Assembly: GCA_023391835.1 (NCBI GenBank)
Contig: JAEWAE010000020.1
Span: forward strand, 1 to 57,140
From: Bacillota bacterium
Lineage (GTDB): Bacteria; Bacillota; Clostridia; Oscillospirales; Ethanoligenentaceae
Length of the DNA stretch: 57,140 nucleotides
Direction: 5' to 3'
Each line of letters starts with the position of its first letter. Position 1 is the stretch's first letter. A model generated the notes under the pieces. It searched no databases and had not been told where the DNA came from. It saw nothing but the letters and a program-made list of their open reading frames with translations. This document shows, in pieces, positions 5,756-34,034 of this stretch. Both the position numbers and the translations under genes were made by a program.

Positions 5756-8046
5756 TCCGGCTCACCGAAGGCCATGGAGCCGATGAAATTTTCTTCAAAA
5801 TCCGGCCGGTCGGCCATCTCGATATAGCGCATGCGCCGGGCGGTTTCGTCGGCCAGCGCCGCGGCCCCGCGGGAAACAAGGCACAGCCGGGCGCCCTCGC
5901 CGGCCGCGTTGCCCACCGACTCCGTACGATCCCGCAGCGCCGGAGGCAGCAGCCCCACCGCGAAGGCGGAATCCAGTCGCATATAGCTGCCGAAACCGCC
6001 CGCCACCAGCACCCGCGACACCTCGCCCGGCCCGATGCCGGAGTGTTGCAGCAACAGGCTCACACCGGCGCGGATGGCGGCTTTGGCCAGCTGCACCTGC
6101 CGCACGTCCCGCTGGGTGAACACGACGGCTGCCCGCCCCGGGGATGCCGGCACGAGGGTGAAAGCCCGCTCGTCCCCTATGCGGGTCAGGCGGGCGGCCA
6201 GGTCGGGCCGCAGACCGGCGGTTTCTTCGGGCGCACGCATCCGGCCCGAAGCCTCCACCACCCCATGACGGAAAAGCTGCGCCGCCGTATCCAGCACACC
6301 GGAGCCGCAGATGCCCGCGGCCGGGCCCCCGCCGATGACCTCGCATACCGGGTCGGCGTCGAAATTCACCCGACTGACGGCGCCGGGCACCCCGGCCATG
6401 CCGCAGCGGATGCCGCCGCCCTCGAAGGCCGGCCCGGCCGCCGCCGCGCAGCAGTTGAGCGTTTCCCGTCCGCCCAGGACGATTTCACCGTTGGTGCCAA
6501 GGTCCAGGAACAGCACCGGCTTCGGTGCCTGCGGCACGTCGCAGGCCACCAGCCCCGCCGTGATATCCGCCCCCACAAAAGCCGACACTCCGGGCAGGAT
6601 ATCCACCGGGCCGCCGACGGGCAGCCCCGTTTCCGCCGCGGTCAGCTCCATCCCCCCGGTGAAAGCAGGGGTGTAGGGGGCTTCCGCCATGGCTCCGGCG
6701 GGCGCCCCCAGCAGCAGGTGGAGCATGACCGTGTTGCCCGCCGCCGTCAGGCGGCCGATTCCCGCCGGGTCAAGCCCCCGGCGGGCGCAAAGTGCCCGAA
6801 GCATGTCGCCGAGCTGCCCGACGATGAGCGTGCGCAGTCGCTCGCCGCCGTCGGGGTGTTCCCGTACATACTGCAGGCGGGTAATCACGTCCGCCCCGTA
6901 GGGCCGCTGGCGGTTGAGGCCGCCCAGACGTTCCACCGCCGCACCGGTGCGCAGGTCGACAAGCGCACAGGCCACCGTGGTGGTGCCGATATCCACCGCC
7001 GCGCCGAAAGGCCGCCCGGCGGCAGTTACCGGGTCGGGGACAAAATCCGCCGCCCGGCCGGCCAGCGCCACCGGGCCCGAGGAAGCGGGGGCGTCGGGCA
7101 CGCGCAGGCGCAGCGGTTTTTTCACTGTCACCCGGCAGGCCAGCCGCACCCCGTCTTCCAGTTCCCGGGCGGTCAGCAGCCGCCGGTCCTCCGGCGAGGG
7201 AGCGGGCGCGCCGCAGGGAAAAATCACCCGACACTTGCCGCATACGCCCCGGCCGCCGCAGGGGCTCTCGCCCAGAAGGCCCCGGGCACGCAGCATTTCC
7301 AGCAGGTTTTCCCCCCGCCGGGCGGCGATACGGATTTCGCCCGCGGCCGTTTCGGCCGTCACCGTCACGGTTTCCTCCGCACCGGCGCGATAGGGGCAGC
7401 CCGCGCAGGGGCAGGCCCCGCAGCCCGCCGGCCCGGCACAGACACCCCGGCCGATGCCGTAGACCGCCGTCGCCGTTTTGAGCGGCGACAGTGCGCCGGA
7501 GGGGCCGAGGCGCACCCCGAGTTTTTCCGCCCGGGGCAGGCAGGCGAGCACGGCGGCCTGCTCCTCCAGCGCCCAAGGGCCGTCGCCGGGGGCGAAGCGC
7601 CCGGTGAGCGCAAGGCCCCGCGCGGCGGCATCATCGGCCAGACGGCGCGCCACAGCCGCGCCGAGCTTTTGCAGCGTGCACACGGCGAAACCGTCCGCCG
7701 CCATGGCGGCGGGGTAATCCCCGGCGGCAAAGGCGTCGCGGATATGGCCGTCGATTGCTTCCCCCACCGTACAGAGGGTGACGGCCGTCTCGCCGCACCC
7801 GGCAAACGCGCCGACTGGGAAGCCCCGGGCGAACACCGCGCCGTTTGCAAGCTCCAGCCGGTCCTCACTCCGCCCGGTGACGCGCAGGATGCGTACCGCC
7901 GCCGCGGGGTGCAGCAGCGGTCGGCAGCGGGCCATTTCCCGCTCCGCCAGCCGGCACAGCTCCGCGCCCGGCTCGGGGCCGGCCTGCATGGTACACAGCA
8001 CTGCCTGCACATCCACCTCACCCGGTATATCCTGCCACTGCCGCAT
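5752..8046 (-). CDS. RACo-like corrinoid activation protein: N-terminal MetH-type B12 activation domain + 2Fe-2S ferredoxin domain + ASKHA (DUF4445) ATPase domain
   Basis: There is a plant-type 2Fe-2S motif (CGGRGVCGKCRV) and an ASKHA fold with DIGTTTV, DLGTNGE and GGFG motifs. The N-terminal roughly 200 aa resemble the methionine-synthase reactivation domain. The ATG at 8046 is preceded by GGGAGG. Confidence 0.75.
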   Translation of the reverse strand: MRQWQDIPGEVDVQAVLCTMQAGPEPGAELCRLAEREMARCRPLLHPAAAVRILRVTGRSEDRLELANGAVFARGFPVGAFAGCGETAVTLCTVGEAIDGHIRDAFAAGDYPAAMAADGFAVCTLQKLGAAVARRLADDAAARGLALTGRFAPGDGPWALEEQAAVLACLPRAEKLGVRLGPSGALSPLKTATAVYGIGRGVCAGPAGCGACPCAGCPYRAGAEETVTVTAETAAGEIRIAARRGENLLEMLRARGLLGESPCGGRGVCGKCRVIFPCGAPAPSPEDRRLLTARELEDGVRLACRVTVKKPLRLRVPDAPASSGPVALAGRAADFVPDPVTAAGRPFGAAVDIGTTTVACALVDLRTGAAVERLGGLNRQRPYGADVITRLQYVREHPDGGERLRTLIVGQLGDMLRALCARRGLDPAGIGRLTAAGNTVMLHLLLGAPAGAMAEAPYTPAFTGGMELTAAETGLPVGGPVDILPGVSAFVGADITAGLVACDVPQAPKPVLFLDLGTNGEIVLGGRETLNCCAAAAGPAFEGGGIRCGMAGVPGAVSRVNFDADPVCEVIGGGPAAGICGSGVLDTAAQLFRHGVVEASGRMRAPEETAGLRPDLAARLTRIGDERAFTLVPASPGRAAVVFTQRDVRQVQLAKAAIRAGVSLLLQHSGIGPGEVSRVLVAGGFGSYMRLDSAFAVGLLPPALRDRTESVGNAAGEGARLCLVSRGAAALADETARRMRYIEMADRPDFEENFIGSMAFGEPD

Positions 8047-21939: not shown

Positions 21940-22079
21940 AAGGATAACCTCCTGTCGGGTCTTGTTTTCTTTTGGTGCCTTTAGTATACCGGGCAAATTT
22001 GACAGGCGTTTGAACGGAATGCGTCCGGTTTGCAAATGTATTTTTGCCGAATTGTGAACGGCCGCGGGGAAAAAACGTT

Positions 22080-22094
22080 ACGTTACCGTAACGT
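22080..22094. promoter_or_regulatory. perfect 7-1-7 palindrome ACGTTACCGTAACGT, flanked by AACGTT half-repeats, in the divergent htrA/lacI-family regulator intergenic region
   Basis: The palindrome was read directly and is the only strongly AT-rich symmetric element in the region. It is a candidate operator. Confidence 0.3.
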
Positions 22095-22132
22095 TATATT
22101 AACGATATTATCTATAAATATATCGGTTATTA

Positions 22133-22162
22133 TTGCGTTATGCTGTCGTACTGTGGTATACT
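22133..22162 (+). promoter_or_regulatory. candidate sigma-A promoter (TTGCGT-N18-TGgTATACT extended -10) for the LacI-family regulator
   Basis: Hexamers read from the sequence, about 30 nt upstream of the start. Confidence 0.35.
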
Positions 22163-22191
22163 GTCCGTGTGATTTATATCGGGACGGAGGG

Positions 22192-23190
22192 ATGCGGATG
22201 CGCACGGAAAAGCCGCGCATGGCGGATATTGCACGGGAGCTGGGGATTTCCACCATTTCGGTCAGCCGGGCGCTGGCCGGCCAGGAGGGCGTGAGCGACG
22301 AGCTGCGCCGCCGGATTGTGCAGAAGGCTGCCGACATGGGTTATTTCCGCGCCGCTCACACCCTCGACGGCAGCCGGGTGCTGGTGCTCCACCAGAAACC
22401 CCTGGTGCAGGACAACGGCAATTTCAGCCGTATCCTGCAGGGTGTGGAGCAGGAACTGCAGCAGGCCGGCTGCGAGTATGACCTGGCTTTTGTGGATAAG
22501 GAAAAACAGCTGAGCGGCATACTCCCGTGCAAGGTGCGCAAGGGGGTGCCCTACGCCGCCGTGCTGTATATCGGCGGCTTTGACGCCGCCTATGTGCGCC
22601 GGCTGAGCACGCTCATCGGCAGCGCCGTGTGCTGCACCGGCTATTCGCCCGCCGCGGAATGCGACGGGGTGTGGTATCATTTCAACCGCGCCGCGTGGCG
22701 GCAGTGCGACTATCTGCTCGCCCGGGGGCACCGGCGCATCGGCTATGTGGGCAATAGCCTGGGCTATGTCAGCCGGGAAAAAATCGCGGGCATCACCATG
22801 GCGCTGGGTGCCGCGGGCCTTGCGGCGGACGAGCGCTTTTTCTGCCCGTCGATGGAGGATTTTTCCGCCCGTCTGTGCGGGCTGATCGAAAAGGGCGAAG
22901 GCCCCACGGCGCTGATATGCCAATGGGATTACACCGCCGTGCAGGTCGTCAAGGCGCTCCACGACCGGGGCCTGCGTGTGCCGGAGGATGTGTCGGTGAT
23001 GGGCTTCGGCGACACGGAAATGGCCGCGCTGAGCATCCCCGCTCTCACCACCTGCGACCCGCATATCGACTGCGTCTGCCGCACCGCCGTGGAGCTGCTC
23101 CGCCGGCGGCTGCGCGAGCCGGAGCGGCCGGTGGAAACCGTGCTGATCGACAGCACGCTGGTGGAGCGCGACTCCGTCCGCCCGCTGTAA
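22192..23190 (+). CDS. LacI family transcriptional regulator
   Basis: An N-terminal HTH (MADIARELGISTISVSRAL) is followed by a periplasmic-binding-like sugar-binding domain. A GGAGGG SD lies upstream. Confidence 0.85.
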   Translation: MRMRTEKPRMADIARELGISTISVSRALAGQEGVSDELRRRIVQKAADMGYFRAAHTLDGSRVLVLHQKPLVQDNGNFSRILQGVEQELQQAGCEYDLAFVDKEKQLSGILPCKVRKGVPYAAVLYIGGFDAAYVRRLSTLIGSAVCCTGYSPAAECDGVWYHFNRAAWRQCDYLLARGHRRIGYVGNSLGYVSREKIAGITMALGAAGLAADERFFCPSMEDFSARLCGLIEKGEGPTALICQWDYTAVQVVKALHDRGLRVPEDVSVMGFGDTEMAALSIPALTTCDPHIDCVCRTAVELLRRRLREPERPVETVLIDSTLVERDSVRPL

Positions 23191-23224: not shown

Positions 23225-24970
23225 ATGGGGGAAAACATCGTCTTTCGATTTATTCGGCAGCATAAGTTCTCGTATATTGCCGGCATCCTGTTTATGCTGC
23301 TTGCGTCCTATGTGCAGACGCTTTTTCCGAAAGTGCTGGGCGACACGGTGGATATTCTCAAAGACCGGCATTTCGCCGCGGCCGCCGTCTATCGCAACAT
23401 CGGCTTCATCCTGCTCATCGCCGCGGGCACCTTTGTGTTTACCTACCTGTGGCGCAATCTGGTCGTCGGCAACGCCCGCCGGCTGGAATGTGACCTGCGG
23501 GAGGAGCTTTTCGGCCATTTCCAGGTCCTTTCGCCCGAGTTTTACAGCACCCGCAAGACCGGCGACCTCATCGCCTATGCCATCAACGACATAAACGCCG
23601 TGCGCATGACCTTCGGCCCGGCGCTTGCCATGTCTGTCAACGGCGTCGTCGTGTGCTGCATATCGGTGTGGTCGATGGCCCACGCGGTCAACTGGGGGCT
23701 AACGCTGCTGGCGCTGGTGCCGGTGCCGCTGATGGTGGCCATCATGATCCGCATCGGGCAGCTGGTCAAGCAGCGTTTCCGCCGCGTGCAGGAAACCTTC
23801 GCCTCCATTTCCGACCGTGTCAACGAAAACATCAACGGCAGCCGGGTCATCAAGGCCTATGCCCAGGAGGATGCCGAGGTGATGCGTTTTGAGACGCTCA
23901 ACGCCCGCATGCGCGACTCGAATCTGGGCATGGTGCGGGTTTCCTCGGTGCTGTCGCCGCTCATCGAGCTGTGCTTCACGCTCAGCTTCGTGCTCAACCT
24001 TATCCTCGGCGGCAATCTGGTGCTCCGGGGACGCATCTCGCTGGGCGATTTCGTGGCCTTCAACGGTTATCTGACGATGATTCTGGCACCCATCCTTTCC
24101 ATCGGGCGGGTCATCACCATCTTCCAGCGCGGCATGGCATCGCTTGGGCGGCTCAACGACATCCTGAAGGTGCCGCCCAAGCTGCGCGACACCGGCCGCG
24201 TGACGCGGCTGCCGGCGGATTACGCCATCCGCATCCACGACCTTTCCTTCACCTACCCCGGCGCGTCGGAAGAGTCGCTGCGCCACATTTCCCTGGATGT
24301 GCCCAAGGGCCACACGCTGGGCATCGTGGGCCGCACCGGCTCGGGCAAAAGCACCCTGTGCAGCCTGCTGCTCAAGCTCTATAACGTGGAGGACGGCAGG
24401 ATCTTTTTCGGCGACACCGACATCAATTCCCTGCGGATAGAGACGCTGCGCGGCTCCTTCGGCTTCGTGCCGCAGGACACTTTCCTTTTCCGGGCCTCCA
24501 TCGCCGATAACATCCGCTTTTTCAGCCCCGACTATTCCGACGAGGCCGTGCGCCGGGCCGCCCGCGACAGCTGCATCGAAAAAAGCATCCGCACGCTGCC
24601 CGGCGGCTTTGCCACCGTGTTGGGCGAGCGGGGCGTCAATCTTTCCGGCGGGCAGAAGCAGCGCATCGCCATCGCCCGGGCGCTGATCCGCGACCCGAAA
24701 ATTCTTATGCTCGACGATTCCCTCTCGGCGGTGGACACCGTCACCGAAACCGCCATTCTTGAAAACCTGCGCCGGCTGCGGCAGGGCAAAACCACCCTCA
24801 TCGTCGCCAGCCGCATTTCGGCGGTGATGCAGGCCGACGAAATTCTCGTGCTCGACGGGGGCGAAATCAAAGAACGCGGCACCCATGAGCAGCTGCTGCG
24901 GGAAGGGGGGCTTTACCGTGAAATCTACGACTACCAGTTCCGCGCCGAAAGCGCCGACGACGCCTCATAA
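23225..24970 (+). CDS. ABC transporter ATP-binding protein/permease (type I exporter half-transporter)
   Basis: Six N-terminal TM helices precede an NBD with Walker A GRTGSGKST, the LSGGQKQR signature and Walker B ILMLDD. Confidence 0.9.
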   Translation: MGENIVFRFIRQHKFSYIAGILFMLLASYVQTLFPKVLGDTVDILKDRHFAAAAVYRNIGFILLIAAGTFVFTYLWRNLVVGNARRLECDLREELFGHFQVLSPEFYSTRKTGDLIAYAINDINAVRMTFGPALAMSVNGVVVCCISVWSMAHAVNWGLTLLALVPVPLMVAIMIRIGQLVKQRFRRVQETFASISDRVNENINGSRVIKAYAQEDAEVMRFETLNARMRDSNLGMVRVSSVLSPLIELCFTLSFVLNLILGGNLVLRGRISLGDFVAFNGYLTMILAPILSIGRVITIFQRGMASLGRLNDILKVPPKLRDTGRVTRLPADYAIRIHDLSFTYPGASEESLRHISLDVPKGHTLGIVGRTGSGKSTLCSLLLKLYNVEDGRIFFGDTDINSLRIETLRGSFGFVPQDTFLFRASIADNIRFFSPDYSDEAVRRAARDSCIEKSIRTLPGGFATVLGERGVNLSGGQKQRIAIARALIRDPKILMLDDSLSAVDTVTETAILENLRRLRQGKTTLIVASRISAVMQADEILVLDGGEIKERGTHEQLLREGGLYREIYDYQFRAESADDAS

Positions 24971-26729
24971 GCGCCAGACCTTCCGCCGTCTGCTGGCGCT
25001 CAACCGCCCGGAGCTGCGGCGCATCATTCTGGCGGCGCTGTGCGTGCTGCTGGTCAACGGCGCGCTGCTCATCAAGCCCTATATTCTCAAGGTCGTCATC
25101 GACGATTTTCTCACCCGGCGCGCCGCCCAGCATGGGCTGTATTCCCTCACCGCCATGGGTGTGCTCTATTTTGCGGTGGTGCTGCTCAGCGGCTTTTTTG
25201 GCGTCGCGCAGGTCAACCTCATCAACACGGCGGGGCAGAATATCATGCGCACTCTGCGGGGGAGGGTCTTCCGCACCATCCAGTTCCTGCCGCTGCGGTT
25301 TCTTGACAAGACCTCCTCCGGCAGCCTCATCACCCGGGCCACCAACGACGTGGAGGCTTTGAGCGAGTTTTACACCGACGTGCTCATCAGCCTGTTTCAG
25401 GATGTCTTCCTCATTCTGGGCATCATCGGCGCCATGCTGGCGATGGATGTGCGGCTGACGCTGGTGTCTTTCTGCGTCATCCCGGTGATGCTCACCATCA
25501 TTTTCCTCATGCGCACCAAGGTCAAACGGAATTTTCAGAAAATGAAAGCCCTCATCGGGCACATCAACGGCTTCATGGCGGAAAATCTCGCGGGCATGAA
25601 GACCGTGCAGATTTTCCACGGCGAAGCGGAAAAGCACCGGGAATTCCACGCTCTCAACGGCGAGTATTATGCGGTGACAAAATTCCAGGTCTGGCTCAAC
25701 AGCATCCTTAAGCCGGCAACCACCGTCTTTCAGAATCTGGCCATTTCGCTGCTCATCTGGTACGGCATGGGCAAAATCGCCGCCGGCACTCTTGAGATCG
25801 GCGTGCTCTACGCCTTCACCACGTATATCCGCCAGTTTTTCGACCCCATTTCAGATCTGGCCGACAATTACACCAACATCCAGTCGGCCTTTGTGTCGGC
25901 CGACCGCATTTTGGAGCTGCTGGATCAGCAGAACTCGCTGGAGGACCTCGACCGGGGGCAGAGCGCCGGGCGCATCGCAGGCGAAATCGAGTTCCGGCAT
26001 GTCTGGTTTGCCTACAGCGGGGAAAACTGGGTGCTCAAAGACGTGAGCTTCACGGTGCCCAAAGGTCGCACCGCCGCCTTCGTGGGTGAGACCGGCGCCG
26101 GCAAAACCACCATCATCAGCCTTATCAGCGGCTTTTACCGCGTCCAGCGCGGAGAAATCCTTATCGACGGGGTGAATATCGACTCCATCAAAAAGCGTGA
26201 CCTGCGGCGCAACATCGCCGTGGTGCTGCAGGATGTATTCCTCTTTTCCGACACCATCGCGAGCAACATCACCCTCAACGACCCCATACCGGAAGAGACT
26301 GTCCAGCGGGCGGTGGACGCCGCCTGCGCCCGCGAGTTTGTCGACGGCCTGCCCGGGGGCATCCGTGAGCCGGTGATGGAGCGGGGCAACACCCTGTCGG
26401 CCGGCCAGCGCCAGCTGATTTCCTTCGCGCGGGCCATTGCCCACGACCCGGCCGTCATCGTGCTCGACGAGGCCACCGCCAATATCGACTCCCACACCGA
26501 GCAGCTTATCCAGCGGGCCATCGACCACATGGCGAAGGACCGTACCGCCCTGATCATCGCCCATCGGCTTTCCACCATCCGGGGTGCCGACCGCATCATC
26601 GTGCTCCAGAATGGCCGCATCGTCGAGACGGGCACCCACGCGGAGCTGATGGCCGCCGACGGCTATTACCGCCATATGGAGGAAGAGGGGCTCAGCGGCG
26701 AGGCGTCCCTGTCGGCCGCCGGGGCCTGA
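24885..26729 (+). CDS. ABC transporter ATP-binding protein/permease (partner half-transporter of heterodimeric exporter)
   Basis: TM domain plus NBD ([24 protein letters not shown]). The start is ambiguous: the ATG at 24885 overlaps the upstream gene, while the GTG at 24918 follows a GGAAGGGGGG SD. Confidence 0.85.
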
Positions 26730-28336: not shown

Positions 28337-28732
28337 ATGCTCGACTGCTATCGTCTGCAGACCGACCGGGAGGGGTTTATCGATATCACCGGCCCGGTGG
28401 AAGAATCCCTGCGCAAAAGCGGCGTGCACGAGGGGATCTGCGTGGTCTACTGCCCCCACACGACCGCGGGAGTCACCATCAACGAGAATGCCGACCCCGA
28501 CGTGCGCCGCGACCTGCTGCTGGGGCTAAGCCGGGCGCTGCCCGACCGGCCGGATTTCCGCCACGCCGAGGGCAACTCCGCCGCACACCTCAAGGCCTGC
28601 TGCGTAGGCTCCAGCGTGACCATCCCCATCGCCGACGGCGGGCTGGTGCTGGGCACCTGGCAGGGCGTCTATTTTGCCGAATTCGACGGGCCGCGCCGGC
28701 GCGGCTTTTACGTTAAAATTCTGGCCGGATGA
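28337..28732 (+). CDS. yjbQ: YjbQ/UPF0047 family protein (secondary thiamine-phosphate synthase enzyme)
   Basis: Characteristic YjbQ sequence (…HTTAGVTINENADP…, SVTIPI…GxWQG). Confidence 0.85.
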   Translation: MLDCYRLQTDREGFIDITGPVEESLRKSGVHEGICVVYCPHTTAGVTINENADPDVRRDLLLGLSRALPDRPDFRHAEGNSAAHLKACCVGSSVTIPIADGGLVLGTWQGVYFAEFDGPRRRGFYVKILAG

Positions 28733-29816
28733 GTGGCAGCGCCGAAAAAACGGCCGCGTGAAGCACCCGGCGCAGCCGCAGCAGCGGGTTTTGCTCCCGG
28801 GTGGGATGCACCCGGTTGGTGAGCAACAGCACATACAGCCCCGTCTCGGGCGAAACCAGCAGGTGAGTGCCGGTGAAACCGGTGTGGCCAAAGGCACGGG
28901 GGTCGGCAAACGCCCCGGCGCAGCTGGTGTAGCCGCCCGCCAGCTGAAAGACCAGCCCCCGGTTTTCGGCCATGCCGGGCGTATAATTGCGGATGGCCGC
29001 CCGCAGCGTGGAGGGTGCAAGGTAGCGGCCCCGTGGCGTTTCGCCGCCGCAGGCGAGCATCTGCGCCAGACGGATGCCGTCCGTCAGGTCGGAAAAGACC
29101 CCCGCGTTGCCGCTCACCCCATTCAGGAACCGGGCGTTTTCGTCGTGGACGACCCCGCGCAGCCATTCGCCGGTGGCCGGGTCCCTCTCGGTGAAGGCGG
29201 CATGGGTCGCCTGGGATGGGTCGACCAGCCGCCCCCCGTGCAGCGGGTGGTAACCGGTGGCGGTCATCCCCAGCGGGCCGAAAACCGCCTCCCTGGCGAT
29301 ACGGTCCAGCGGTGCCGAAAAGATGCGCTCGAGGATCTTGCCCAGCAAAATGAAGCCCATGCAGCTGTAAATCACCGCCGACCCCACGGGAGCCGCCAGT
29401 GGCGCGCGCAAAATGGCCGCCGCCGCGTCCTCCGGCGAAGCGGCGGTCTGCTCAAGCGGCAGCGCGGCGGGCAGCCCCGCCGTGTGCGTCAGCAGGTGAA
29501 ACAGCGTGATGCTCCGTTTATCCGCCGGCACCGGGCCGAGATAGCGGCCGATGGTGTCCGCCAGGTCGAGGGTGCCGTCTTCCAGCAGCCGCAGCGCGGT
29601 CAGTCCGGCGGCATACACCTTGGTCAGCGAGGCCAGGTCATATGGGGTGTGCACCGTCACCGGCTCGGCCTCGGGCGTGTAGGAAGTAACCCCCCAGGCC
29701 TCGCACACATAGACATGGTCGCGCACGCCGATTACCAACGCCGCCGACGGCACGGCCCGGGTGTGCACGGCCTCACTGACCAGAGATGCCGCCTTTTGAA
29801 ATCGTGGGTCCGTCAT
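28713..29816 (-). CDS. serine hydrolase, beta-lactamase/esterase (class C-like) family
   Basis: The S-x-x-K nucleophile motif SLTK appears near the N-terminus and the length fits this family. The ATG at 29816 is preceded by AGAGGGCGGG. The ORF-track N-terminal extension is unlikely to be coding. Confidence 0.8.
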   Translation of the reverse strand: MTDPRFQKAASLVSEAVHTRAVPSAALVIGVRDHVYVCEAWGVTSYTPEAEPVTVHTPYDLASLTKVYAAGLTALRLLEDGTLDLADTIGRYLGPVPADKRSITLFHLLTHTAGLPAALPLEQTAASPEDAAAAILRAPLAAPVGSAVIYSCMGFILLGKILERIFSAPLDRIAREAVFGPLGMTATGYHPLHGGRLVDPSQATHAAFTERDPATGEWLRGVVHDENARFLNGVSGNAGVFSDLTDGIRLAQMLACGGETPRGRYLAPSTLRAAIRNYTPGMAENRGLVFQLAGGYTSCAGAFADPRAFGHTGFTGTHLLVSPETGLYVLLLTNRVHPTREQNPLLRLRRVLHAAVFSALPLIRPEF

Positions 29817-29976: not shown

Positions 29977-30006
29977 TTGACATCCGGTTCCGGAATGGGA
30001 TACAAT
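29977..30006 (+). promoter_or_regulatory. near-consensus sigma-A promoter TTGACA-N18-TACAAT
   Basis: Read directly; it drives the 49-codon ORF below. Confidence 0.45.
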
Positions 30007-30062
30007 ACCATTGTTGCGGCGGATTGCGCCGCCTGAATTTATGACAAAAGGAGGTGGGCAGT

Positions 30063-30212
30063 ATGATTCTTCTCAATCGCTTGGGTGGGAAATACCGTGT
30101 CGTGCTGGCGGGCGTCGAGCGCATCGGCGGCGTTGTGACGGCATTCTCGGCTTTTTCGCGTGTGGGTACGGATGATTGCTGCCCGCCCGTTTCCGATACC
30201 GGTCCGGTCTGA
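30063..30212 (+). CDS. unannotated small ORF (49 aa, MILLNRLGGKYRVVLAGVERIGGVVTAFSAFSRVGTDDCCPPVSDTGPV) with strong SD AAAGGAGG
   Basis: Below the 60-aa cut-off of the ORF track. It has an AAAGGAGG SD 8 nt upstream of the ATG, its own consensus promoter, and is followed by a perfect terminator. Confidence 0.4.
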   Translation: MILLNRLGGKYRVVLAGVERIGGVVTAFSAFSRVGTDDCCPPVSDTGPV

Positions 30213-30234
30213 CCCGGCCTATGCGGATGCGTGC

Positions 30235-30267
30235 AGCCCTTCTCCGTTCCCGGAGAAGGGCTTTTTT
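30235..30267 (+). terminator. rho-independent terminator (AGCCCTTCTCC-gttccc-GGAGAAGGGCT + TTTTTT)
   Basis: An 11-bp perfect stem plus T-run lies between the small ORF and the ABC exporter gene. Confidence 0.55.
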
Positions 30268-30304
30268 GCGTCCTTTTTCGTCACTTTAGAAAGGGGGATA
30301 CCCT

Positions 30305-32137
30305 ATGTCCGGAAAATCCCGCCGCACCGCCGGCTTTATCGGGACGATGATCCGACCCGTGCTGCCCCTGTTTTTCGCGGCGGGCGTGTGCCTGCTGCTC
30401 AGCACCGCCCTCAACACGCTGATTCCCCAGGCGGTCAGCGTCGCCATGGATACCCTCGCCGCCGGCCGGCCGGCGGATATTTCCCCGGCCGTGCTCGGCC
30501 GGCTGGGCCTTGCGCATGCTTCGCCCGGCACCGTACTGTGGCTGTGCGCCGGTGCCGTGCTGCTCTCTTCGCTGCTGGCGGGGGTGTGCAGCTACGGCAG
30601 CCAGCTCAGCGCCGCCAAGGGCTCCGAGACGGCCGTGCGCGGCCTGCGGGACCGGCTGTTCGCCCATATCCAGCGGCTGCCCTATCTGTGGCACACCGGC
30701 AATCAGACGGGTGACATCATCCAGCGCTGTACGTCGGATGTGGACGTCGTGCGCAGTTTCGTGGGTTCCCAACTGCTGGAGGTGGTGCGCACCGGCATCC
30801 TCGTCACCCTCACGACCATCGTGATGGCCCTGATGAACTGGCGGATCACGCTGGTGGCCGTGTCTTTTCTCGTCGTTATCTTTTTCTACTCGGTGCTGTT
30901 TTACGGCCGCATCGCCGGGCGGTTCCTTGAAGCCGACGAGTCGGAGGGGCGTCTTTCCTCCATCACGCAGGAAAATCTCACCGGCGTGCGGGTGGTGCGC
31001 GCCTTCGGGCGGGAGCGGTATGAGACCGCGCGCTTTAAGCGGGCCAACGACGAATTCGCCGACCTCTGGCTGCGGCTCGGGCAGCTGCTCAGCGCTTACT
31101 GGAGTCTGGGCGACCTCATCACCGGGCTGCAGATCCTGACGGTCTCGGCCGTGGGCATCTGGCAGACGGTGCAGGGTGCCATCACACTGGGCCAGTTTCT
31201 GGCCTTTGTTTCCTACGACACCATGCTGATCTGGCCGGTGCGCTCGATGGGGCATGTGCTTTCCGAAATGAGCAAGACGGGCGTGTCGCTGCGCCGGATT
31301 CAGTACATCCTCGATTCCCCGGCGGAAGAGGAGCCGCCCGACGCGCTGGAACCGCCCATGACCGGCGACATCGAGTTTTCCCACGTGAGCTTTGCCTTCG
31401 GGGAGGGCCAGCCGGTGCTGCGGGACGTGAGCCTGCGCATCCCGGCGGGGAGCACCTTCGCCATCCTCGGCGGCACGGGCAGCGGCAAATCCACCCTCAT
31501 GCACCTGCTCGACCGGCTGTATGATCTGCCGCCCGGCAGCGGCACCATCACTGTCGGCGGGGTGGATATCCGCCGCATCCGCCGCGCCCACCTGCGCCGG
31601 AATATCGGCATGGTGCTGCAGGAGCCCTTCCTTTTTTCCCGCACCATTGAGGAAAACATCCGGGCGTCCCGGCCGGATGCCGGACGCGAGCCGGTGCGCC
31701 GCGCCGCGCAAATCGCCGCCGTCGACGGCGCGGTGATGGAATTTCCCGACGGCTACGACACCATGGTGGGCGAGCGGGGCGTCACCCTTTCCGGCGGACA
31801 GAAGCAGCGGGTGGCCATCGCCCGCATGCTGATGCAGCGGGCGCCTATCCGGGTATTCGACGATTCCCTGTCGGCCGTGGACACCGAGACCGACGAAAAG
31901 ATCCGCGCCGCCCTGCGCCGGCAGGGCGGGCCAGCCACCACCATCCTGATTTCCCACCGCGTCACGACGCTGATGCAGGCCGACCGCATCCTCGTGCTGG
32001 AAAACGGCCGCGTGGCGGAAAGCGGCACCCACCGCGAGCTGCTGGCCCGGGGCGGCATTTACCGCAAAATTTACGACGTGCAGGCGGGGCGGGATGAGAC
32101 CGACGCGACAAAGGAGGCACCCGGCGATGGGATATGA
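30305..32137 (+). CDS. ABC transporter ATP-binding protein/permease (type I exporter half-transporter)
   Basis: TM domain plus NBD (GGTGSGKST, LSGGQKQR, VFDDSLSAVD). Confidence 0.9.
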   Translation: MSGKSRRTAGFIGTMIRPVLPLFFAAGVCLLLSTALNTLIPQAVSVAMDTLAAGRPADISPAVLGRLGLAHASPGTVLWLCAGAVLLSSLLAGVCSYGSQLSAAKGSETAVRGLRDRLFAHIQRLPYLWHTGNQTGDIIQRCTSDVDVVRSFVGSQLLEVVRTGILVTLTTIVMALMNWRITLVAVSFLVVIFFYSVLFYGRIAGRFLEADESEGRLSSITQENLTGVRVVRAFGRERYETARFKRANDEFADLWLRLGQLLSAYWSLGDLITGLQILTVSAVGIWQTVQGAITLGQFLAFVSYDTMLIWPVRSMGHVLSEMSKTGVSLRRIQYILDSPAEEEPPDALEPPMTGDIEFSHVSFAFGEGQPVLRDVSLRIPAGSTFAILGGTGSGKSTLMHLLDRLYDLPPGSGTITVGGVDIRRIRRAHLRRNIGMVLQEPFLFSRTIEENIRASRPDAGREPVRRAAQIAAVDGAVMEFPDGYDTMVGERGVTLSGGQKQRVAIARMLMQRAPIRVFDDSLSAVDTETDEKIRAALRRQGGPATTILISHRVTTLMQADRILVLENGRVAESGTHRELLARGGIYRKIYDVQAGRDETDATKEAPGDGI

Positions 32138-33959
32138 CGAGACCGAATACACCCGATCATTCGACATCCGCATTTGGCGCGGCCTGATGCGCTACATCCG
32201 CCCCTACCGGGGCATGCTGCTGACCGTCGTGGCGCTCAACTTCGCGGGGGCGGCTTTCGACATCACGCAGCCGCTTTTCCAGCGCTATGCCGTCGACCAT
32301 TTCATCACCGGCAAAAGCACGGCCGGGCTCGCGGGCTTCTGCGCGCTTTACGCCGCGGTCGTGATCCTCATGGCCGCCGTGGTGCTCATCTTTACCCGGC
32401 TTTCCATGCGCATCGACACCCACATGGGGCGGGATCTCAAGCAGGCCTGCTTCGAGCACCTGCAGACCCTGTCGCTGTCATATTATAACGTCACGCCCGT
32501 GGGCTATATCCTGGCCCGGGTGATGAATGACACCGGGCGCATCTCGGGGCTGCTGGCCTGGAACCTGCCGGATATCCTGTGGTCAACGGTCTATGTGCTG
32601 GGCACCTTCGCCGCCATGCTGGCCCTCAACCCCAGGCTGGCGCTGCCGGTGATGCTGCTCATCCCCGCGCTGGCGCTGCTCACCGCCTATTTTCAGGACC
32701 GCATCCTGCACTGGAACCGCCGGGTGCGCAAGCTCAATTCCAAAATCACCGGCGCCTACAACGAGGGCATCACGGGGGCCCGCACCTCCAAGACGCTGGT
32801 CATCGAGGACGCAAACTTCGCGGATTTTTCCCGTCTGACGGGGGAAATGCGTGAATCCTCCATCCACGCCGCGCGGCTCAACGCCATTTTCATGCCCGTG
32901 GTGCTGTCGCTGAGCGCGGTGGCCACGGCGGTGGTGCTCATCCGCGGCGGCTACCTGACAATGCAGCACCGCATGCTCATCGGCACCCTGTCGGCCTTCG
33001 CCACCTATTCGGTGAGCATTTTCCAGCCCATCCAGCAGATCGCCCGCAACCTTTCCGAATTCATTTCGGTGCAAACCAACATCGAGCGGGTCACCGGGCT
33101 GCTGGATGAGAAGCCCCGGATCGTCGACACCCCCGCCGTGGTGGCGAAATACGGCGACGCCTTCCACCCCAAGCCGGAAAATTGGGAGCCTATCCGCGGC
33201 GACATCGAATTCGACGACGTGAGCTTCCGCTACCCCGACGGCGGGGAGGACGTGCTGACCCATTTCTGCCTGAAGATCCCCGCCGGCTCCACCGTGGCCA
33301 TCGTGGGCGAGACCGGCGCCGGCAAAAGCACGCTGGTCAACCTGGCCTGCCGGTTTTTCGAGCCCACCGGCGGGCGGGTGCTCATCGATGGGCGGGATAT
33401 AAGGCAGCGCAGCCAGCTGTGGCTGCACAGCGCTATCGGCTACGTGCTGCAGAGCCCGCATCTTTTTTCGGGCACGGTGATGGAAAATATTCGTTACGGC
33501 CGGCTCGACGCCACCGACGACGAAGTGATCGCCGCCGCCCGGGCCGTGAGCGCCGACACGGTGGCGGCCCGGCTGCCCCACGGCTACGACACCGACGTGG
33601 GCGAGGGGGGCGACCTGCTTTCCACCGGGGAAAAGCAGCTGATATCCTTCGCCCGGGCGGTGCTGGCCGACCCGCGTGTCTTTGTGCTCGACGAGGCCAC
33701 CTCTTCCATCGACACCCGCACCGAGCAGCTTATCCAGCAGGCCATTGCGAAAATCCTGCGGGGGCGCACCTCCTTCCTCATCGCCCACCGGCTGTCCACC
33801 ATCCGCCACGCGGATAAGATCCTCGTGGTGCACGCGGGGCACATCGTCGAGCAGGGCACTCACGAGGAGCTGCTGGCCCGGCGCGGCGCCTACCATTCAC
33901 TCTATACCCGGCAGTTTGCCGACGAAGCCACCGATCGGGCGCTGGGGGGAGAAGCCTGA
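32127..33959 (+). CDS. ABC transporter ATP-binding protein/permease (partner half-transporter)
   Basis: TM domain plus NBD (GETGAGKST, LSTGEKQL, FVLDEAT). It overlaps the upstream gene by 11 nt, and an AGGAGGC SD lies before the ATG at 32127. Confidence 0.9.
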   Translation: MGYDETEYTRSFDIRIWRGLMRYIRPYRGMLLTVVALNFAGAAFDITQPLFQRYAVDHFITGKSTAGLAGFCALYAAVVILMAAVVLIFTRLSMRIDTHMGRDLKQACFEHLQTLSLSYYNVTPVGYILARVMNDTGRISGLLAWNLPDILWSTVYVLGTFAAMLALNPRLALPVMLLIPALALLTAYFQDRILHWNRRVRKLNSKITGAYNEGITGARTSKTLVIEDANFADFSRLTGEMRESSIHAARLNAIFMPVVLSLSAVATAVVLIRGGYLTMQHRMLIGTLSAFATYSVSIFQPIQQIARNLSEFISVQTNIERVTGLLDEKPRIVDTPAVVAKYGDAFHPKPENWEPIRGDIEFDDVSFRYPDGGEDVLTHFCLKIPAGSTVAIVGETGAGKSTLVNLACRFFEPTGGRVLIDGRDIRQRSQLWLHSAIGYVLQSPHLFSGTVMENIRYGRLDATDDEVIAAARAVSADTVAARLPHGYDTDVGEGGDLLSTGEKQLISFARAVLADPRVFVLDEATSSIDTRTEQLIQQAIAKILRGRTSFLIAHRLSTIRHADKILVVHAGHIVEQGTHEELLARRGAYHSLYTRQFADEATDRALGGEA

Positions 33960-34034
33960 TCCCATCGGCCGGATGCCATTGAACCGGACTCGCTGTCCCG
34001 CCGGGTGACCGGCGGGATTTTTTTATCCCCGGGG

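Follow-up and report, generated by a model that had tools for sequence, protein, structure and literature searches.

The locus and its exporter genes

Two ABC transporter genes with a short leader unit directly upstream were analysed in a stretch of DNA of 57,140 nt, called the window here. The leader unit is composed of a promoter, an SD, a small open reading frame (ORF) and an intrinsic terminator. Four segments, numbered 1 to 4, are distinguished in its RNA; P1 is the helix between segments 1 and 2. The features are listed below, all with window coordinates.

29977 to 30006, + strand: sigma-70-type promoter, with TTGACA at 29977-29982, an 18-nt spacer and TACAAT at 30001-30006 (11/12 match)
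30016 to 30032, + strand: small 5' stem-loop, GCGGCG/CGCCGC, near the transcript start, from MFE folds; its sequence is not conserved
30047 to 30074, + strand: segment 1, with the leader SD, the GGGCAG flank, ATG 30063 and codons 2-4; predicted 5' strand of P1
30047-30054, + strand: leader SD AAAGGAGG, 8 nt upstream of ATG 30063
30063 to 30212, + strand: leader ORF, 49 codons plus TGA (30210-30212); predicted translated sensor, product not conserved
30152 to 30156, + strand: T5 tract directly 5' of segment 2, from inspection of the sequence
30164 to 30195, + strand: segment 2 (2a and 2b), inside the 3' part of the ORF; its predicted partners are segment 1 or, via 2a, the terminator 5' arm
about 30164-30182, + strand: 2a, ACGGATGATTGCTGC, the 5' portion of segment 2
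30178-30195, + strand: 2b, the anti-SD block, GCTGCCCGCCCGTTTCCG, which is also the "CCPP" codons; the 3' portion of segment 2
30232 to 30247, + strand: segment 3, the terminator 5' arm and 3 nt upstream of it; predicted partner of 2a at 30167-30182 (-14.6 kcal/mol)
30235 to 30268, + strand: intrinsic terminator (segments 3:4), with a perfect 12-bp stem at 30235-30262, a 4-nt loop TTCC and T6 at 30263-30268
30290 to 30298, + strand: ABC1 SD AAAGGGGGA, upstream of ATG 30305
30305 to 32137, + strand: ABC1, a half-transporter of 610 aa with ABC_membrane and ABC_tran
32127 to 33959, + strand: ABC2, a half-transporter of 610 aa with ABC_membrane and ABC_tran and its own AAGGAGG
33995 to 34018, + strand: operon-end terminator

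The first-pass annotation of this DNA had reported a TTGACA-N18-TACAAT promoter, an SD at good spacing, a 49-codon ORF and a textbook terminator. All four were recovered, and the ORF encodes precisely the peptide that had been quoted. The distance from terminator to exporter had been given as 38 nt. The gap is indeed small, but the count had started from an end coordinate of 30267, and the ABC1 ATG lies 42 nt past the terminator stem and 36 nt past the T-run. The terminator itself begins 22 nt downstream of the leader stop codon. Only two promoter-like sites were found in the 6 kb searched. None stands between the leader terminator and ABC1, where 42 nt leaves no room for one. An Rfam search with the leader returned no family match, only three chance-level matches far under the gathering scores (E 0.16-5.2).

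The two exporter genes had been described as coupled, and the ABC2 ATG (32127) does overlap the ABC1 stop codon (32135-32137) by 11 nt. In ABC1 the signature is canonical (LSGGQ) and Walker B is degenerate (FDD); in ABC2 it is the signature (LSTGE) that is degenerate, and Walker B (LDE) is canonical. The closest bacterial structures to the pair were TmrAB, BmrCD and TM287/288, at about 300 bits. Judged by these motifs, ABC1/ABC2 is an asymmetric heterodimeric exporter with one degenerate nucleotide-binding site. Besides ABC_membrane and ABC_tran no domain was found in the two proteins, and in particular no C39 peptidase domain. The neighbours of the unit (a beta-lactamase-fold protein, YjbQ, a HAD hydrolase and an acetyltransferase) include no modification genes.

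Three further observations were made in the window. The gene for the beta-lactamase-fold protein (PBP4B/AmpH-like; 28713-29816, - strand) adjoins the unit, and the same fold was found in the related lineage L165 on the opposite side (6742-7845, - strand). This neighbour could be there by chance or through a functional link. A second exporter pair of the ABC_membrane/ABC_tran type lies 3.5 kb upstream (23225-26729, + strand), directly after an ORF at 22030-23190 (+ strand), and has no promoter, leader ORF and terminator unit of this kind. At 39676-39581 (- strand), a 31-codon ORF, MKATVCPGCGARNVIPAGRTVPCEYCGTPLS, has two CxxC pairs and is zinc-ribbon-like; it is accompanied by an SD and, at 39557-39535, by a hairpin resembling a terminator.

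Recurrence of the unit in related lineages

In 10 further lineages, promoter, SD, ORF and terminator likewise stand in this order ahead of the orthologous ABC pair, and the flanking genes differ. The contigs of nine ABC1 orthologue clusters were compared, and the unit was found directly 5' of the ABC pair in L163, L164, L165, L167, L169, L173, L175, L176 and L177; the contig of L166 carries no upstream sequence. A scan for ABC1 in genome and metagenome contigs gave only relatives at most 52% identical. Of about 160 loci with such relatives, L020 alone showed the architecture in a heuristic scan. ABC1 identities of the unit-bearing lineages were 81, 79, 77, 67, 63, 63, 63, 62 and 62%, and 48% for L020. 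Since the unit is kept while its surroundings change, the leader travels with this group of ABC orthologues, and its recurrence in 10 other lineages shows that the unit is more than a chance arrangement.

The carriers were Oscillospiraceae or Caproiciproducens-like organisms and one member of the Lachnospiraceae (L020). In a large protein collection, several ABC1 orthologues, from 81 down to 62-64% identical, were named Caproiciproducens, Caproicibacter or Ruminococcaceae. The species of the window was also present in activated-sludge metagenome contigs (L081, L082).

Across the lineages, TTGACA and TAnAnT could be aligned in 10 of 11. AAAGGAG and the ATG were invariant in 11 lineages, at a spacing of 6-11 nt. 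A terminator stands between the leader ORF and ABC1 in every lineage with the unit, conserved in structure and different in sequence. A tract of T4-T6 was present at the place equivalent to 30152-30156 in 9 of the 10 lineages inspected, the exception being L176. This tract may be a putative RNA polymerase pause site that synchronises ribosome loading, by analogy with the NusG-dependent TTNTTT sites of B. subtilis leaders (PMC6851288). A hairpin in a position comparable to that of the small 5' stem-loop was also found in L165 and L175. Most lineages had in common an (A/T)TGTTG motif about 4-10 nt 3' of the -10 box (window 30010-30016, alignment columns about 62-68), which may mark the context of the transcription start or an operator.

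Other leaders were seen in front of related exporters. The 64%-identical pair of L168 has a different, shorter leader with a terminator, about 100 nt upstream of the ABC genes. The more distant pairs of L003 and L005 have different short leaders with terminators, about 60 nt upstream, and in L003 the terminator lies inside a 22-codon ORF. Among these exporters, attenuation may thus be widespread and evolve fast.

The leader ORFs of the 11 lineages had lengths of 49, 49, 46, 42, 46, 35, 32, 41, 23, 19 and 33 residues. Their peptides could not be aligned and had no motif in common. An exhaustive phmmer search of 1.84 billion representative proteins matched the peptide of the window only to the cluster of its own species, the four other matches being long repeat proteins. 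A word-indexed peptide search likewise found only the same-species cluster, and searches of Pfam and NCBIfam with the peptide gave no match. Between the window and L163, L164 and L165, the interior of the ORF was 62-64% identical at the nucleotide level and the third codon positions of ABC1 63-66%, so that the ORF interior diverges like synonymous sites; identity was 89-94% from the SD to the ATG and 91-97% in the terminator.

The Cys-Cys-Pro-Pro end of the peptide coincides with a block that is conserved as nucleotides. Its codons are the anti-SD block CTGCCCGCCC, which starts in all three frames across the lineages and is read elsewhere as LLPA, LPV, LSV or SPPA. In L165 the nucleotides of the block are kept, and an indel of 1 nt turns the reading into LLPAR, so that CCPP is lost. 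CCPP was therefore rejected as a peptide motif. A weak "A-F-S" motif was rejected as well, because it stems from the T4-T6 tract, which encodes Phe in any frame. Motifs of the type Arg/Lys-x-Arg/Lys (+x+) were frequent among the leader peptides and not universal; a function for them is speculative.

The reading frame itself is kept. From the ATG served by the SD, it is open through segment 2 in every lineage, for which the chance product is about 1.3e-4 (seven independent lineages). The stop codon always falls 2-35 nt past the anti-SD block and 20-59 nt ahead of the terminator. Gene callers predict the leader ORF in several assemblies. Within the species, 6 of 7 substitutions in the ORF were at third codon positions, and the changes were 5 synonymous and 1 non-synonymous; this third-position bias hints at some constraint on the peptide. 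Three of these substitutions were C-to-T changes opposite G in predicted helices. An open frame together with an invariant ribosome-binding site fits a translated sensor with a dispensable product. In the first-pass annotation, a peptide that is not conserved while its nucleotides are had been taken to mean that the ORF is not coding. The comparison with relatives gave that pattern, with RNA elements kept and the peptide not, but the rule proved too strict, since the open frame and the ribosome-binding site are conserved.

Alternative pairings of the leader RNA

In the MFE structure of the leader, 30053-30074 (the 3' half of the SD, the AUG and codons 2-4) was paired with 30164-30187 in the 3' part of the ORF. 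The duplex of this helix, P1, had -20.8 to -32 kcal/mol in 10 close lineages, with z of -1.4 to -4.2 against a shuffled 3' part of the ORF; it was weak in L020 (-10.9 kcal/mol). Its flanks covary (GGGCAG/CTGCCC, GGACAG/CTGTCC and GGGCAAAAG/CTTTTGTCC), and RNAalifold recovered the helix independently. Cognate pairs were more stable than non-cognate ones in a permutation test (p=0.007; this and the following permutation p-values are approximate, as the lineages are related). P1 is predicted to be an anti-antiterminator that also closes the leader's own ribosome-binding site.

A search for alternative antiterminator folding, as proposed in the first-pass annotation, revealed a second partner for segment 2: 2a (30167-30182) pairs with 30232-30247. 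For this fold, segment 1 was masked, as it would be by a bound ribosome, and the RNA ended at the terminator 5' arm. The 5' arm then paired just 5' of the anti-SD block, slightly overlapping it, in about 8 of 10 lineages; L176 was a borderline case, and the 5' arm of L169 found its best partner further upstream. In sequence, 2a mimics the terminator 3' arm of its own lineage, as seen for the window (CGGATGATTGCT vs CGGAGAAGGGCT), L173 (TCAGAAGTACTTTT vs TCAGAGGTGCTTTT) and L177 (TATCGGGATCGT vs CATCAGGAGCGT).

Testing duplex energy against shuffled sequence gave no significant result for the partner of the 5' arm in this GC-rich RNA. In its place, cognate and non-cognate assignments were compared by permutation. 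With seven lineages, the cognate assignment of 2a to the 5' arm was the most stable of all 5040 permutations (approximate p=0.0002). With eight lineages and several definitions of the compared stretches, approximate p-values were 1e-4 to 1.5e-3, against 0.26-0.53 for control stretches of equal size.

P1 and the antiterminator share 30167-30182 and are thus mutually exclusive. The antiterminator (-10 to -20 kcal/mol) is weak beside the terminator, which was kept in every full-length MFE structure. With the terminator thermodynamically dominant in all full-length folds, the switch must be kinetic. Taken together, the 1:2, 2a:3 and 3:4 pairings make up a four-segment attenuator with an anti-antiterminator, an antiterminator and a terminator. 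L169 and L020 fit this model less well.

A hairpin that would sequester the SD of ABC1 was also considered and rejected. It pairs CCTTTTTC (30272-30279) with GAAAGGGG (30291-30298) at -8.4 kcal/mol, with a z of -0.8, and is not conserved. If real, it would act as in vmlR and tlrB and keep read-through transcripts silent.

Proposed mechanism and known systems

We consider it likely, judging from the sequences and their predicted folds, that the operon of the heterodimeric ABC exporter is gated by the unit, acting as a ribosome-dependent (leader-ORF) transcription attenuator. A regulatory leader ORF with an attenuator was one of two readings offered by the first-pass annotation. It gains support from the conserved order of promoter, SD, ORF and terminator, from the lack of room for a separate promoter and from the covarying SD:anti-SD helix and the likewise covarying antiterminator.

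A strong, probably constitutive promoter would produce a leader RNA of about 250-255 nt with the four interacting segments. With no ribosome on the leader, segments 1 and 2 would pair and shut its ribosome-binding site, segments 3 and 4 would form the terminator, and transcription would stop 36-42 nt ahead of ABC1, leaving the operon off. Fast translation would have the same outcome: a ribosome keeping pace with RNA polymerase would cover segment 2 as segments 3 and 4 emerge, and the terminator would form. Segment 2a would be left free by a ribosome that is held on segment 1, at the start codon or the codons right after it, or that queues behind a stall situated 5' of segment 2. Free 2a would capture the 5' arm of the terminator, and polymerase would continue into ABC1 and ABC2. 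We infer both the translation of the ORF and the kinetic order of these events. With its ribosome-binding site closed by P1, the leader could be open to translation only co-transcriptionally, during the brief time before segment 2 is made.

By analogy with B. subtilis bmrB-bmrCD, the signal would be slowed or arrested translation, caused for instance by ribosome-targeting antibiotics, and the exporter would remove such compounds. Early arrest of translation in the ORF is the probable inducer. It is favoured as the signal because, with leaders as short as 19 and 23 codons, 2a would be freed only by stalls at the first few codons. More specifically, and tentatively, the leader might be a dedicated sensor of arrest in initiation or early elongation that switches on an inducible efflux module, responding for example to lincosamides, pleuromutilins, streptogramin A, or macrolides at N-terminal +x+ motifs. 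Read-through would in that case call for a loaded ribosome that is arrested at or close to the start codon. If true, anaerobic Oscillospiraceae and Lachnospiraceae living in guts and digesters would possess a widespread inducible efflux module that had so far gone unrecognised.

Other explanations can be weighed against this evidence. That RNA elements alone are conserved, and the peptide not, would also be expected of an untranslated regulatory RNA, a riboswitch or protein-binding attenuator with an incidental ORF, in which a ligand or protein chooses between P1 with the terminator and the antiterminator; P1 is a long-range closing helix as in aptamer domains. Against such an RNA stand the AAAGGAG and ATG, invariant at a spacing of 6-11 nt in 11 lineages, and the frame that is always open across segment 2 and closed ahead of the terminator. 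The region enclosed by P1 moreover ranges from about 57 to 147 nt and drifts as neutral sequence, which makes it ill suited to a ligand pocket, and no Rfam family matched. We regard this explanation as unlikely. It is quite improbable, too, that the leader is a translated switch of another polarity or site, with segment 1 pairing to segment 3 upon a late Pro-Pro stall in segment 2 (a sensor of EF-P or proline), or a simple report of ribosome availability for initiation. In favour of such a switch, the SD region could pair with the 5' arm at -17 to -20 kcal/mol in the clade of the window and in L175, and Pro-Pro is found in segment 2 of the window, L163, L164 and L167. However, this 1:3 pairing had no cognate specificity across lineages (approximate permutation p=0.58), for which it was rejected as the antiterminator, and it was weak in L173, L176, L177 and L169; Pro-Pro is missing from L165, L169, L173, L175, L176 and L177. 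An attenuator that senses one amino acid was rejected because no codon run is common to the lineages.

The other reading of the first-pass annotation, in which the ABC pair serves a Cys-Cys-Pro-Pro peptide that is secreted or modified, was not supported. As an independent gene for a small protein or exported CCPP peptide, the ORF would be accompanied by an ABC pair that exports the product or gives immunity and is expressed via leaky read-through. The strong ribosome-binding site, the self-contained unit, the predictions of gene callers in several assemblies and the within-species ratio of 5 synonymous to 1 non-synonymous change would all suit such a gene. We nevertheless find it very unlikely. 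The peptide has no homologue beyond its species, its counterparts are unrelated peptides of 19-49 aa without a common motif, and CCPP is the anti-SD block, whose frame varies by lineage and which in L165 keeps its nucleotides and loses CCPP through the 1-nt indel. The set has no signal peptide or double-glycine-type leader in common, and the locus shows neither a C39 peptidase domain nor modification enzymes. With no conserved precursor either, a RiPP or bacteriocin locus was rejected. Most likely, the 49-codon ORF is the sensor of a conserved switch rather than a peptide gene.

The striking Cys-Cys-Pro-Pro motif would then be a by-product of an RNA pairing element, which calls for caution in the mining of small ORFs and RiPPs. 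To our knowledge, efflux regulation in anaerobes such as Caproiciproducens-like Oscillospiraceae is essentially unstudied, and the defined segments permit asking which translation stresses induce these exporters.

Classical attenuators of amino-acid operons, of the trpL type, are built on 1:2, 2:3 and 3:4 pairings, and a fast ribosome on segment 2 favours termination. The present leader shares the four-segment topology. It differs from them in that no codon run for a single amino acid is shared among the lineages, exporters are regulated, and segment 1 is the ribosome-binding site instead of regulatory codons.

The leaders of vmlR, tlrB/yxjB, lmo0919 and mef/msrD, antibiotic-responsive uORF attenuators of Firmicutes, are alike in that a stalled uORF ribosome blocks an anti-antiterminator and an antiterminator replaces the terminator (10.1101/2025.01.13.632840; PMC6851288; PMC10314930). 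The T-tract just 5' of segment 2 is reminiscent of the NusG-dependent pause sites in this group. In contrast to the leader described here, they control ABC-F proteins, methyltransferases or MFS pumps and have much shorter uORFs. In several of them an extra hairpin masks the main gene's SD, whereas the candidate for such a hairpin is weak in the window and not conserved.

The system most fully comparable is B. subtilis bmrB (yheJ)-bmrCD, in which induction by chloramphenicol, erythromycin and lincomycin needs translation of bmrB (PMC4191407). Both have a short leader ORF (about 53 codons there, 49 here), a heterodimeric ABC exporter with one degenerate ATP site (PMC4191407), an intrinsic terminator ahead of the exporter genes, three alternative structures and, as the proposed signal, the position of the ribosome on the leader. 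The same attenuation logic has been described for vmlR, tlrB and ytbDE (10.1101/2025.01.13.632840; PMC6851288). In bmrB, the anti-antiterminator, antiterminator and terminator are all inside the ORF (nt 60-162; PMC4191407), whereas here the terminator lies 22 nt past the stop codon and the leader's own SD and start codon supply the 5' strand of the predicted anti-antiterminator. The peptides and RNAs have no sequence relation, judged for the peptide by Pfam, NCBIfam and phmmer searches, and the ABC proteins are only generically related (about 300 bits). Induction has been shown for bmrB; the leader described here is known from its sequence.

The leader had no match by name or family in the sources searched and is absent from Rfam. 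It is functionally of the bmrB-bmrCD kind and, strictly speaking, falls outside the bmrB family. Leader-ORF attenuators in control of multidrug-type ABC exporters are few, and the unit is a well-supported addition to them.
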